Below are positions 6,721 through 19,219 of a stretch of DNA of 51,718 bases, one piece after another. Every line of letters begins with the position of its first letter. Within the stretch, counting starts at the first letter, position 1. Location of the stretch: IMG/VR virus record IMGVR_UViG_3300013383_000248, one strand, 5' to 3'. Source of the stretch: a virus. Made by a program: the position numbers and the translations under genes. Under the pieces are notes generated by a model that saw nothing but the letters and a program-made list of their open reading frames with translations, ran no database searches and was not told the DNA's origin.

Positions 6721-7032
6721 TTAAAGCCCTAACTTTTCAATTAAAGCTCTTAAATTTTCTTCTTCTTCTGGACTAATCTCTGTAGCCTTCTTCACAGGTT
6801 GGATAGTTACTCCATCTTCAAAATTCAATTCATTATTGCCAAAATCCATAGAGCCAAAAGACTCAACAGGCGTCTTTGGGCAAGTTAGACTAATCGCAAT
6901 CTGAACATACTGTCCATTTTCTTTCGCACGGACGTAGTATTTTTTATCATAAGACCCAAGAAAGTCTTCACCGAATGCTTCAGCAATTTTCTCTACAACA
7001 GCATCCTTAGCGATACTACCTTTTGCTGCCAT
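6721..7032 (-). CDS. hypothetical protein (103 aa)
   Basis: ORF; GGGAGAATGAATAATG RBS; start overlaps stop of upstream gene (TAATG). Confidence 0.5.
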   Translation of the reverse strand: MAAKGSIAKDAVVEKIAEAFGEDFLGSYDKKYYVRAKENGQYVQIAISLTCPKTPVESFGSMDFGNNELNFEDGVTIQPVKKATEISPEEEENLRALIEKLGL

Positions 7033-8363
7033 TATTCATTCTCCCTATCAAATAAAATTTCATCATAACAAGCTTCACAATAATAAGCATTGTTAACTTC
7101 ATCGTAAATTAAATCTTTTTTATTATAATATGTATTGCAATTATCGCAAATCTAGTAATCATCACCGCAATCGCGGCATACATATCCATCATCATCATCT
7201 AATGGTATAGCTTCAGGGATATAAATACGTCTACCGCAATCTTTACAGAAGGTAAAATCTTCTGTCTCTTCTGTACCATATTTAAGTTCGCAATCAATAC
7301 AAAGCATTGTATCTGTTAAAACACAATCATTCTTACCGCATACACAACATTTTACATCATGTCCTATATTCACTTTAGTATTTAGACCAGTTCTTGGTGT
7401 AATTACATTTTCTCGTGGCACACCTTTATCATCATACCAATAAGGTTTGCCATAAGCGATACTAAACCAATAGTCATAAACAGTGGAATGTAAAGGGTCA
7501 TTATAATGTAAAGGATGTTTAGGGTCTACAATAACTTTAATATCTGGCGTCATTACATATCCAGTAGGCAACATACGAGTTTCTGTGAATAAACATTTAC
7601 CATTCAACTCATATCTATCATATTTCTCATGGCACCACTTAGTAAAACTATATCCTTGACTAAAGAATGTTTCATAAAGCTCAAGTGCAAAATCTTGCAA
7701 TCCTTTACTTTCATAAGGATAATGCCGACCTGAGATAAGTAACGTGTCATCGTGCGATACATGTAGTAGCATACGCCATTTCTTATCTGTCCATGGCACA
7801 TCATCTGGAAATCTAGGTAAAACAGCATTATGTTCACTTTTAATATAACAAACAATAGTGCAATTATCTGCCATATAAGATAAATTACCAGCACGGTATT
7901 CTCCATCAAGGGCATGGCAAGAACGCCAGTTATGTGTATTTTCACTTAGACTAAGATAATCAAGAGGATGTACTGAAATGCAAAAATATCCACTAATCTT
8001 AGTATTTTGAATAAGCATACTAGCTTTATCCTGCAATTCAGTAAGAGTATTTTTATCCTTAACAAAATACTTAAATGCCTTAATTATCTTCATTCCTTTT
8101 GGAATGACTACTCCATCTTTTACTGGATAATCTTTACTCAGACTATTATTATAGAAATCATTTCTATTATATTCAATAAATTCTCTAAGTTCAACTAACT
8201 CTAGGCTATAATGCCAACGAATATCATCAATAAAATTATCCAATGCCGCTTCTTTATCTTCATTTGAAATAGGCATAGTAATAATATTTGGAGTTTGATA
8301 AATTAACTTATTGCCGGGAAGTCTACTATAGAATCTACATTTATTTTCTTCCCAATCTTTCAT
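7032..8363 (-). CDS. large Cys-rich paralog P1 (443 aa; one in-frame TAG at 7152-7154), SIHPLDY core plus four C-terminal CxxC zinc ribbons
   Basis: after ...YVCRDCGDDY the frame continues through TAG as ICDNCNTYYNKKDLIYDEVNNAYYCEACYDEILFDRENE to TAA overlapping the next ATG; shares ...SVHPLDYLSLSEN..W.SC...YRAGN... with ORFs 10967 and 17540. Confidence 0.6.
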
Positions 8364-8443
8364 TAAATTATCAATATTTAAAAGGTCAATGTTTAACCCC
8401 TATGAATGAGCAATAACCTTTTTTACTTGTTCTTTAATTTCAT

Positions 8444-17011: not shown

Positions 17012-17460
17012 TCCTCACTTGTTCTATCGTCATCAGGTCTTTCAAGATTTTCCATATCATTAATTCGGATGGGTTCCCAATTATAATGTGCATGATGCAG
17101 CCAGTCTTCCTTATCCCAAGACTCTACTTCTTTTCTAATCTCTTGGATTTGCTGAAGTCTATTACGAGTTTCAACAATTTCTCGTTCACAATGATTAAAA
17201 TTACTCTTAGAAGCTCTTGTACTTAACTGCCCCTGTTTTGGTGCGTGCAAATAAAAATTACAATTCTGAATATATCTATCAAGTTTTTTTTTGTAATCCT
17301 TTTCTGTTTCATTAACGCCTTCAAGATGATTACGCTTATGTTGCTCCATCCATGAGCTATTATAAACAGCATCTAAATATTCAGTCAACTTATCTTCAGT
17401 CAGATAAGCAATATCATATTCATCCCAAGCATTGCCACGGCTTACTTTATAGATAGTCAT
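17002..17460 (-). CDS. hypothetical protein (152 aa)
   Basis: ORF preceded by AT-rich promoter 17477-17514. Confidence 0.4.
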   Translation of the reverse strand: MTIYKVSRGNAWDEYDIAYLTEDKLTEYLDAVYNSSWMEQHKRNHLEGVNETEKDYKKKLDRYIQNCNFYLHAPKQGQLSTRASKSNFNHCEREIVETRNRLQQIQEIRKEVESWDKEDWLHHAHYNWEPIRINDMENLERPDDDRTSEDWM

Positions 17461-17539
17461 ATATCTCCCATCCTTTCTATATATATTATATCAAATTTTT
17501 TATAAATTTTCGAGTTTTTAATTTTGACAAGAGTTTAAA

Positions 17540-19219
17540 CTAAACATAATCGTTAGGGTAAGTTCTCTTTAAATATTCCTTGGCACTAACAATAGGTCCT
17601 TTATCCTGAAGGAAGGGACGCCAGATTTTTTCATCTACCTTATCAACATCAATATATTGATAATCGCCCCATTCATCCACTTCCTTCGGCACATCATCAA
17701 AATCATAATCATCATAGCAATCATCACAAACATCAAAAGGTCCTTTGACATCACGCTGATGCTTACCATTAGGAGTTTTTACTACAAACATATAAGGCAA
17801 ACTCTGCTTCTTAAAATCATAGTCAAGCCATTTACGCTCATCACAGCAGCTGCAGGTCGCCATACGTCCATCTGCACACCAACTGCAATAGGCAGCACCA
17901 GTCCAATTATTGAACCAAGCTTCACTTTCATCAATCCAAGAACCGCACTCATCGCACTGAATCTTGCCTTCGCAGCTTGCACATACAACCTTGTCAGAGT
18001 CAGTAAATGCATCCACATTTCCAGAAGGCTCAACATGGTAACCTTTGCCACAACACATACATTCTGTTTCGCCAGAGTAATTAATTTCTACTTCATCTAC
18101 TGTTGGATTAATATAAGCAGAATGATTATCATAGTAATCATTATACATAGCACCGGTCTTCATACGAATGAATACTTCGCCAAAGTTAGTTGTATTCTTT
18201 TGGTTCTGCCAAACTTCATACATCTTATCATCATAATGCCAGCCCATATTTTCCTCGGCCAGTTTCTTGATTTTATTCATAACAAAATCACGCAGATAAA
18301 TATTGAAATAAGGATACTGCTTTACCTCAGTAATAATATCCTTATTAACAATATACAAACAACGCCAACGCTTATTGCTCCAAGTTCTTTCGGTATCCTG
18401 CCCATAATAGTTAAGAGGATAATAAGGATGGTCAGACTCAACATATGCTTCAAGAACAACAGGCGAGTTCATCATTTCAATAGTGCCAAGACGATAATCG
18501 CCACCGTTATACCAGTTCATGCAACTATCCCAATTGCAATCATTATCACTCATAGTAAGATAATCAAGCGGATGAATGGACAGTACAAGGTCAGCATCAA
18601 TCATTCGGTCATTCAGAACACGGGAATGGAGAATACGGAATTGCTCAAATGCATCTTTATCCAATTCAAACCAATCAACAATCTTAGCCATCATTCGCAT
18701 AAGCTTCATATCAGTCTTAAGCTCAAGCGGCTTAGACCCTTCAGCATGCGGGCCACGATTAAGAACAACAGACTTGGGACCCCAATCAAGCATATACTGA
18801 TTCTTATTAACAACAAGGGATTCAGTATCAAGACAATGCTCAATGATGGCACAACAATACATACGCTCATCTTTGTCAAGAGTTGTATCCATCCAATGAT
18901 AATATGTAGAAGTAATTTGCTCGTAAGCATTAATGAAATCTTTCACTTTTTCCAATTCAGGATTATTATAGATTTCATCATACATTTCATTAATCTTATC
19001 TGCCAAATCATCATTAGAAGCTTCATATCTGATGTGCTTTTTAACCATCAGATTATTGCCGAGAAGCTCAAACAGTTCAGGCTTTTCCGCAGCCCAAAAC
19101 CGCAGCAGGTGATTGATTTCATCTACATCATTACATTCATCAGAATGAAGATACATTTTAATATAATCACTCAAAAGAGTTTTTTCTTCTTCCGGAATAA
19201 GTGTTCTTAAGTCTGTCAT
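17540..19219 (-). CDS. large Cys-rich paralog P3 (559 aa)
   Basis: core SIHPLDYLTMSDNDCNWDSC...YRLGTIEMMNSP, C-terminal CMCCGK..CASC..CDEC..CSWC..CSCC..CDDC ribbons; N-terminus alignable with P2. Confidence 0.6.
   Translation of the reverse strand: MTDLRTLIPEEEKTLLSDYIKMYLHSDECNDVDEINHLLRFWAAEKPELFELLGNNLMVKKHIRYEASNDDLADKINEMYDEIYNNPELEKVKDFINAYEQITSTYYHWMDTTLDKDERMYCCAIIEHCLDTESLVVNKNQYMLDWGPKSVVLNRGPHAEGSKPLELKTDMKLMRMMAKIVDWFELDKDAFEQFRILHSRVLNDRMIDADLVLSIHPLDYLTMSDNDCNWDSCMNWYNGGDYRLGTIEMMNSPVVLEAYVESDHPYYPLNYYGQDTERTWSNKRWRCLYIVNKDIITEVKQYPYFNIYLRDFVMNKIKKLAEENMGWHYDDKMYEVWQNQKNTTNFGEVFIRMKTGAMYNDYYDNHSAYINPTVDEVEINYSGETECMCCGKGYHVEPSGNVDAFTDSDKVVCASCEGKIQCDECGSWIDESEAWFNNWTGAAYCSWCADGRMATCSCCDERKWLDYDFKKQSLPYMFVVKTPNGKHQRDVKGPFDVCDDCYDDYDFDDVPKEVDEWGDYQYIDVDKVDEKIWRPFLQDKGPIVSAKEYLKRTYPNDYV

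Follow-up and report, generated by a model that had tools for sequence, protein, structure and literature searches.

A conserved six-gene block of large gut phages pairing zinc-ribbon proteins, possibly of GNAT-like fold, with a ribbon-tailed metallohydrolase

In a stretch of viral DNA of 51,718 nucleotides (IMG/VR record IMGVR_UViG_3300013383_000248, the whole of which is here called the window), three genes designated P1, P2 and P3 encode large paralogous proteins that each end in three zinc ribbons, and a fourth encodes a di-metal hydrolase of peptidase type that also carries a ribbon tail. P2, the peptidase and P1 belong to a block of six genes found in the same order in every relative examined, and this strict synteny, taken together with gene overlap and the conservation of P2, is what a set of core, cooperating components would show, rather than variable host-interaction or anti-defence cargo. 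What is new is the block itself and the partnership with a ribbon-tailed peptidase, no description of either of which was found in the literature searched; the parts are of known kinds, namely zinc ribbons, a hydrolase of clan MH and a putative GNAT-like fold. The favoured reading, which is tentative and is put somewhat short of an even chance, is a composite one: the core of the P proteins would be a divergent GNAT-like transferase lacking chemistry of the coenzyme A (CoA) type, the ribbons would tether both P proteins and hydrolase to a common substrate containing nucleic acid, and P1-type and P2-type proteins would be paired.

From about 6 to 32 kb the genes of the window are without exception on the minus strand, and this is true of the three paralogues: P2 (10967..12601, 544 residues), which opens the conserved block, P1 (7032..8477, 481 residues) and P3 (17540..19219, 559 residues), which is an extra copy lying beyond the block. 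BLASTP aligns P2 with P3 at 2e-52 (31% identity, 496 columns) and P1 with P2 at 3e-19 (442 columns), near full length in each case, which implies that the paralogy extends over the whole proteins; the family, which is uncharacterised, falls into two old subfamilies, one of P1-type and one of P2/P3-type proteins. Common to P1, P2 and P3 are the motifs S-[IV]-H-P-L-D-Y, W-x-S-C, G-x-Y-R-x-G, K-x-W-R, Y-P-Y and Y-N-D, and the polar motifs are kept, in the relaxed forms S-x-x-P-x-D, W-x-S/T-C, G-x-Y/H-x-x-G, K-x-W/Y-R, Y-P and Y/W-N-D, in every paralogue. An earlier note on this DNA, made from the sequence without database searches, had recognised the three minus-strand paralogues correctly, but had limited their similarity to a shared core of about 60 residues; the motifs of that core are indeed present in all three, while the homology proves to be full-length. 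Similarly, its C-terminal CxxC pairs are real, although they number exactly six (three ribbons) in each protein rather than six to eight, and the lower end of its size range of 443–559 residues does not stand, as P1 has 481 residues and starts 38 codons upstream of the ATG chosen there.

A zinc ribbon has two CxxC knuckles, 12–30 residues apart, that form a β-hairpin pair, and the tails of the P proteins and of the peptidase conform to this pattern. In an AlphaFold2 model of P1 short β-strands flank each knuckle, with predicted local distance difference test (pLDDT) values of 91–98 per 10-residue block, and the only matches of P-protein profiles in the PDB were to zinc-ribbon proteins (E 8e-4 to 0.2). 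Among homologues encoded by loci from metagenome-assembled genomes (MAGs), six CxxC motifs are present in 13 of 16 P1-type proteins, and four are present in 9 of 12 peptidases, with three in one more; the peptidase of Enterococcus phage EF1 also has a C-terminal ribbon, in this case a single one. The tails supposed by the note are therefore conserved features, although the similarity between the tails of the peptidase and P1 is modest (pairwise E 1e-5 without composition correction) and is dominated by cysteines.

The peptidase gene (8444..9451, minus strand) encodes 335 residues and had been described in the note as an M42-like metallopeptidase fused to a ribbon tail, an assignment that was upheld: the protein scores 27.1 bits against Pfam Peptidase_M42 (cut-off 23.2), 32.9 bits against Peptidase_M28 (cut-off 21.3), and slightly under the cut-off for M20, while its PHROG matches are to phrog_4191 (‘peptidase’, 1e-32) and phrog_34186 (‘unknown function’, 7e-42). 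It can be aligned with PepT (3gb0) across the two catalytic halves, HxD, GADD, DEE and HEH being intact; thus AHVDT, GADDRAG, TTDEEVG, ELDRAG and GYHHEHT in the window protein may be compared with SHMDT, GADDKAG, GEESG ... GYEEIHT in PepT, and the same clan-MH motifs occur in the EF1 homologue. Judged from this alignment, the five metal ligands and the catalytic Glu all appear to be in place, there is no room for the lid domain of M20 enzymes, and four CxxC motifs make up two C-terminal ribbons.

Synteny was assessed by tblastn of window proteins against related loci. The invariant order is a P2/P3-type gene, a counterpart of g131 (125–153 residues), g275, the peptidase, a P1-type gene and a counterpart of g103 (about 100 residues), and this order was kept in 17 MAG loci. 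On viral contigs from IMG/VR the series g275–peptidase–P1 was present in 80 of 80 loci, with P1 identity falling as low as 31%; the P2/P3-type gene was found in all 75 loci having enough upstream sequence, and the small downstream gene of g103 type in 78 of the 80. In all these loci the P1 gene either abuts the peptidase gene or overlaps it. P2 taken alone has many relatives that share about 70% identity with it and lie on contigs of some 185 kb, and it is the invariant order, the overlap and this level of P2 conservation that together amount to core-gene behaviour. P3 is an additional copy; it was recovered on five IMG/VR contigs by a P3-based pattern search that reaches close relatives only, and tandem P2/P3-type copies are found in a few other phages. 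A more distant version occurs in EF1, where overlapping genes encode a P-like protein of 399 residues, an M28-like peptidase of 368 residues (37% identical to the window peptidase) and a P-like protein of 335 residues, with a further paralogue of 623 residues lying 1.2 kb upstream of the 399-residue gene. The block is a conserved feature of a large clade of gut phages with genomes of 130–200 kb, some of which read TAG as Gln, and whose hosts are probably Clostridia.

The family is a large one. A profile of the three paralogues matched 2,088 proteins in a set of 5.8 billion sequences, with no Pfam domain among the 120 matches listed, and when 1.84 billion cluster representatives were searched exhaustively by profile there were 7,272 matches at E≤1e-3, 3,955 at ≤1e-10 and 2,326 at ≤1e-30. 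At roughly 7,300 clusters, clustered at 50% identity (2,326 of them at E≤1e-30), it ranks among the larger protein families that lack any annotation, and the strict conservation of the block in widespread large phages of human and animal guts suggests an essential, undescribed step of the infection cycle. Sequence and profile searches of P1–P3 in Pfam, NCBIfam and the PDB returned zinc-ribbon noise only, so that in these collections the core did not match any housekeeping enzyme family; such a match is what the earlier note had named as counting against its proposal. PADLOC-DB had no match for P1–P3, the peptidase, g275 or g103; longer members of the family (492–589 residues) showed no known extra domain; and when some 30 neighbouring open reading frames (ORFs) of the window and its relatives were run against Pfam and PHROG, the matches were scattered. 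P1 matches phrog_18912 (‘unknown function’) at 7.5e-20, while P2 and P3 have no PHROG match. Within GenBank, phage relatives are confined to the Enterococcus phages EF1, EF5, VRE9_1-4 and H1 and one 4.4-kb metagenomic fragment labelled ‘Bacteriophage sp.’, and neither megablast of the whole region nor tblastn of P3 found a match to GenBank phages. The PHROGs concerned (18912 and 29713 for the P family, 34186 for the peptidase), all labelled ‘unknown function’, probably hold the EF1 homologues, because among GenBank phages only those like EF1 match and the profile lengths of 623 and 368 equal those of two EF1 proteins; it is only as such unnamed clusters that the family exists in databases. In GTDB it occurs only in MAG contigs, several of them of 150–176 kb that may be whole phage genomes, and the bins are mostly Clostridia (Lachnospiraceae, Acutalibacteraceae, Faecalimonas, Gemmiger); the P family is not a bacterial housekeeping gene.

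The length of P1 given above depends on the genetic code. Read with the standard code, P1 is an ORF of 403 residues (7152..8363), which can restart only at Met39, whereas the frame is open from 8477 to 7032 save for TAG codons 26 (8400..8402) and 442 (7152..7154). The note had pointed out that the tail of P1 becomes visible only when TAG is read through, and the frame does continue past codon 442. P0003, a near-identical database protein of 481 residues, has Q at both positions, both TAGs are retained in relatives at about 80% identity, and the N-terminal 38 residues and third ribbon of P1 are conserved in more distant homologues. Across 78 related loci the residue that follows a conserved [YHF]-S in P1-type genes is Gln (CAA or CAG) in 40 and TAG in 3. 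Since the codon-26 TAG of P1 falls on this conserved Gln, the phage reads TAG as Gln (code 15), and public gene calls on 193–195-kb contigs of this phage likewise treat TAG as sense in several genes, namely P1, g275, an S-adenosylmethionine (SAM) synthetase of 709 residues and a DUF5067 protein. Until TAG is read as Gln, translation of P1 in this phage of about 195 kb would halt at codon 26. The main stop codon is TAA: when minus-strand ORFs of 70 residues or more were filtered, 49 of the 77 retained stopped at TAA, 21 at TGA and 7 at TAG. None of the six tRNA-like genes that the window contains is a CUA suppressor tRNA. At 2766..3395 (minus strand) there is a stop-to-stop frame of 210 codons with eight in-frame TAGs, a candidate for a heavily recoded gene hidden under the standard code.

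Recoding is nevertheless uneven. When TAG density was computed across 97 related loci, the figures per 1000 codons were 0.10 for the peptidase and for g131, 0.21 for P2/P3, 1.02 for g103, 1.05 for P1 and 2.83 for g275, as against 5.71 for other plus-strand ORFs of the same loci. The block is thus only lightly recoded, and P1 and g275 still require suppression in about a third of genomes; given the TAG codons that they contain, full-length products of these two genes would be made only after TAG suppression. The stop of P3 is also a TAG, read-through of which under code 15 would add 18 residues, QFKLLSKLKTRKFIKNLI (17486..17542, minus strand). Although this extension recurs in a homologue of 572 residues (P0002), and the database twin of P3 (P0001) has 577 residues, it was rejected as a functional tail on the grounds that it overlaps the promoter-like site of the following gene, so that the conservation is probably the promoter's own.

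As to fold, the AlphaFold2 model of full-length P1 from a 116-sequence alignment has a pLDDT of 94.5 and a predicted template modelling score (pTM) of 0.89, and comprises an N-terminal helical region, an α/β core and then the three ribbons. The core runs β 160–168, α 171–175, α 195–203, β 207–218, β 229–240, β 246–253 and α 258–272, followed by further strands. By element order in the model this succession, β-α-α-β-β-β-α-β, is compatible with the β1-α1-α2-β2-β3-β4-α3-β5 of the GNAT fold. The core of P2 modelled on its own gave a weaker result (pLDDT 70.9, pTM 0.67), and the two models point independently, if only weakly, to the same fold. Thirteen residues are invariant across the superfamily, EF1 paralogues included (P1 numbering: S168, P171, D173, W184, C187, G192, G197, K232, R235, Y253, P254, N326 and D327), and they are located mainly in the predicted β1-α1-α2 region and β3. 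A fold search of BFVD found uncharacterised phage proteins only. Several other assignments were considered from the motifs of the P proteins and dropped: a PD-(D/E)xK nuclease, Cys-His-Asp triads of papain, OTU or transglutaminase type, a YkuD L,D-transpeptidase (for its H-x17-C spacing), a sortase (H-C-R), a PTP-type C-x5-R loop, and an archaeo-eukaryotic primase, the last because there is no DxD motif.

It should be borne in mind that the GNAT superfamily includes members that do not depend on CoA: FemX/FemA, ATE1 and MprF have the GNAT fold and use aminoacyl-tRNA, and proteins of the Fem, ATE1 and Mom types lack the loop that binds the pyrophosphate of CoA. The favoured reading would place the P proteins alongside such relatives, as transferases of an acyl or aminoacyl group like Fem, ATE1 and the Mom-type GNAT relatives. 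Their three zinc ribbons would tether them to a substrate containing nucleic acid, with tRNA or some other RNA slightly favoured over DNA, and the di-metal hydrolase, with its own ribbon tail and its translational coupling to P1, would be recruited to the same substrate and would trim or remove the transferred group; a P1-type and a P2-type protein would probably form the putative working pair. The context is suggestive, in that most relatives have a tRNA array after the block and the window holds an RNA ligase, an RlaP-like nucleotidyltransferase and a metallophosphatase. There are nonetheless several points that weigh against this reading. GNAT motif A, Q/R-x-x-G-x-G/A, is absent from the predicted β4-α3 junction, where P1 has GRHYPYESKGLQD, P2 has KSYPYYNISFDK and the family consensus is YP[FY]; no acetyltransferase match was obtained in Pfam or NCBIfam (E≤1 or ≤0.01) for P1–P3, five proteins of the EF1 locus or 15 other members; no donor or acceptor substrate was identified; and the tRNA arrays, which are absent beside the block in two relatives (L006 and L016) and in EF1, may reflect nothing beyond synteny across the clade.

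The same elements may be put together more boldly. On that account the block is a new kind of machine for modifying macromolecules, core to a clade of gut phages, in which paired GNAT-like transferases are held by their ribbons on tRNA, the ribosome or DNA and attach an aminoacyl or acyl group, a ribbon-tethered PepT-like hydrolase does the trimming, and the whole is gated by TAG recoding, full activity being reached only upon recoding because P1 and g275 need read-through. In so complete a form this is thought unlikely. Even so, the combination of a GNAT-like lead, an obligatory ribbon-tailed PepT-like partner and a recoding gate does narrow the options to something testable, and the fact that cultured Enterococcus phages (EF1, EF5, VRE9 and H1) carry a P–peptidase–P cluster makes the system tractable at the bench.

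A different view is close to what the earlier note had proposed, namely that P1–P3 and the peptidase are separate effectors, each behind its own strong promoter. A near-palindromic, phage-specific promoter-like motif, AAATATTATATAATATAT, occurs (with up to three mismatches) at 17 minus-strand sites where about one would be expected, examples being those at 1753, 4445, 6494, 6681, 9477, 12630, 19250, 21262, 26902 and 29422; TTGAAA and a terminator hairpin often precede it, so that many single-gene transcription units are defined. Upstream of P3 (19250..19312, minus strand) a terminator-like hairpin at 19278..19312 is followed by the promoter-like motif AAATATTATAAAATATAT at 19250..19267; upstream of P2 (12630..12690, minus strand) a hairpin at 12661..12690 accompanies an exact copy at 12630..12647; and the peptidase has a promoter-like copy at 9477..9494. 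For these three genes the claim of an individual promoter is matched by a promoter-like motif. It fails for P1, before which there is no such motif: the P1 ATG (8477) lies 34 nt inside the peptidase gene, and with its start overlapping the 3′ end of that gene P1 is left without a promoter of its own. Given the overlaps that link peptidase, P1 and g103, and the lack of a motif before P1, these genes look like one operon with translational coupling.

If the four proteins were nevertheless independent agents of host takeover or anti-defence, their ribbon tails would serve as a common module for targeting some complex of the host, for instance its RNA polymerase or its ribosome. The terminator–promoter cassettes of P2, P3 and the peptidase would suit this idea, as would the depletion of TAG in the block relative to neighbouring ORFs and a neighbourhood rich in genes of early or counter-defence type (a T7 Gp5.9-like gene, the SAM synthetase and a DNA methyltransferase). 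There is also a precedent in phage GNATs known to modify host RNA polymerase, for example phiKMV Rac (PMC7824862). What such effectors would not be expected to show is a gene order invariant in about 100 genomes and maintained down to 31–38% identity, a P2 conserved at about 70% across many phages, or overlapping peptidase and P1 genes; nor is the family patchy within its clade, as typical anti-defence cargo would be, and PADLOC gave no matches. The proposal of separate effectors sharing a targeting module was therefore not borne out, and in this more general form too it seems improbable.

Hypermodification of DNA is decidedly doubtful, though not without attractions. Here Mom-like P proteins would modify bases of the phage DNA with an acyl or amino-acid group, ribbons and a winged helix-turn-helix (wHTH) protein would bind the DNA, and the PepT-like hydrolase and a TIM-barrel protein with four cysteines would tailor the adduct. 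E. coli topoisomerase I shows that zinc ribbons in tandem are able to bind single-stranded DNA; a DNA methyltransferase adjoins the block both in the window and in one relative (L022), and the SAM synthetase lies nearby. Phage Mu Mom is itself a DNA modifier of GNAT fold, and GNAT-based DNA modification systems are found in large phages (PMC7824862). Set against this, the P proteins have no sequence similarity to Mom, neither in the window nor in the scanned flanks was a deoxynucleoside monophosphate hydroxymethylase, a DNA kinase or any other hallmark of base modification found, and the reading does not explain why two or three paralogous transferases should be needed.

It could also be supposed that the P proteins are not enzymes at all but zinc-ribbon scaffolds or regulators, organising transcription or replication, with motifs that are purely structural. 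No catalytic mechanism is assignable to them, His170 of S-x-H-P-x-D is not invariant in the EF1 paralogues, and the block does contain a wHTH-like protein. Against this, 13 residues, for the most part with polar or aromatic side chains (S, D, C, K, R, Y, N, D and others), remain invariant at about 20–25% identity with all paralogues included, a compact α/β core is modelled with very high confidence, and an intact metallohydrolase is constantly present as partner; the idea is given little credence. As for the notion that P1 is a pseudogene cut by nonsense mutations, its tail after the TAG a decaying remnant, this is scarcely credible, for although the standard-code ORF does stop at 7152 and restart only at Met39, both TAGs are kept in the relatives of about 80% identity, the N-terminal one aligns with the Gln of 40 homologues, read-through completes a third ribbon found in 13 of 16 homologues, and other genes of the phage likewise need TAG to be read as Gln.

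The three remaining genes of the block all lie on the minus strand. The second, g131 (10500..10895), encodes 131 residues with a probable winged-helix C-terminus, and is bounded by a promoter-like site at 10934..10951 and a terminator at 10471..10494; its relatives give weak HTH signals, and g131 itself gives a weak match to a Csa3-type wHTH in PADLOC-DB. The third, g275 (9506..10333), encodes 275 residues with two in-frame TAGs and is TIM-barrel-like, its profile weakly matching designed TIM barrels (E 1e-4); four invariant C-terminal cysteines (C229, C233, C240 and C243) are spaced C-x3-C-x6-C-x2-C. No family match was found for it, and its family search gave 49 proteins, all unannotated. 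The last gene of the block, g103 (6721..7032), has an ATG that overlaps the P1 stop and encodes a conserved protein of 103 residues with an ‘ISLTCPK’ motif and an acidic C-terminus.

The tRNA arrays, of up to 16 genes, are represented in the window by a downstream tRNA region at 538..6632 (minus strand), and comparable arrays lie downstream of the block in loci L027-L086. One tRNA-like gene at 6562..6632 (minus strand; 45 bits against Rfam tRNA) has an anticodon loop of 6 nt, GUUAGU, for which reason ARAGORN cannot name its anticodon. A similarly odd tRNA, with the loop CUUCAA and the same TCC.../...GGAC acceptor ends, occurs right after the block in the distant relative L010 (9813..9883). The RNA ligase, which has a PHA02142 OB domain, the RlaP-like nucleotidyltransferase and a metallophosphoesterase (32685..34055, 14882..15688 and 13908..14687 respectively, all minus strand) look like an RNA or tRNA repair set.

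Other genes of the window, again on the minus strand, include the SAM synthetase (24744..26906), which has all three domains of that enzyme, one in-frame TAG and about twice the usual length of MetK. After it comes a gene of 77 residues (~24421..24729) similar to T7 Gp5.9, of the RecBCD inhibitor family. The DNA methyltransferase (5070..5981; phrog_116, 1.6e-41) is separated from the downstream end of the block by about 1.7 kb, and a KdsA-like enzyme of the DAHP/KDO8P synthase family (Pfam 6.7e-65) is encoded at 1934..2638. Two proteins have no family match, one of 158 residues (16080..16556) that is rich in cysteine, with 13 Cys and three CxxC, and one of 539 residues (19365..20984) with an extremely Met-rich C-terminus. 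Over 38000..51718 the G+C content rises from about 0.33 to 0.39–0.43 and the AT skew changes sign, which suggests a different genome module or replichore. In L006, a relative that uses the standard code, SprT-like, radical SAM and YcaO cyclodehydratase genes flank the block (2643..3149, 10660..12144 and 15829..17154); a cluster for a ribosomally synthesised and post-translationally modified peptide, considered on the strength of the YcaO and radical SAM genes, was rejected as such genes are not found in the window or, as far as these were scanned, in other loci.

It remains to compare the system with those already known. Phages of the gut that recode TAG have been described (Borges et al., bioRxiv 10.1101/2021.08.26.457843; the Phassvirus group, PMC10607447, in the same proposed family as which EF1 has been placed), and the present phage resembles them in its in-frame TAGs at conserved Gln positions, its uneven recoding between genes, its large genome of low G+C content and its likely Clostridia hosts, but differs in that the window has no CUA suppressor tRNA and that the block is lightly recoded. 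PHROGs 18912, 29713 and 34186 are recorded without a function, a link between the families or a description of the module. The peptidase resembles the di-zinc enzymes of clan MH (M20 PepT, M28 and M42) in its Pfam scores above cut-off for M28 and M42 and its PepT catalytic motifs; it is unlike them in having no M20 lid or dimerisation domain, in its two added zinc ribbons, and in a gene that always lies directly upstream of one of P1 type and abuts or overlaps it. In the case of the P proteins, the likeness to the GNAT superfamily (FemX/FemA, ATE1, MprF, phage Mu Mom) lies in predicted element order and in the lack of a CoA loop, as in Fem, ATE1 and Mom, whereas similarity of sequence or profile is absent, the conserved motifs are not GNAT motifs, and an N-terminal helical domain, three C-terminal zinc ribbons and paired paralogues are added. 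Finally, the repeated CxxC-(12-25)-CxxC units recall the tandem tetracysteine ribbons seen in topoisomerase I of E. coli, in Rpb12 and in ribosomal L32/S14, a likeness that is generic and lends no support to a common target or function.

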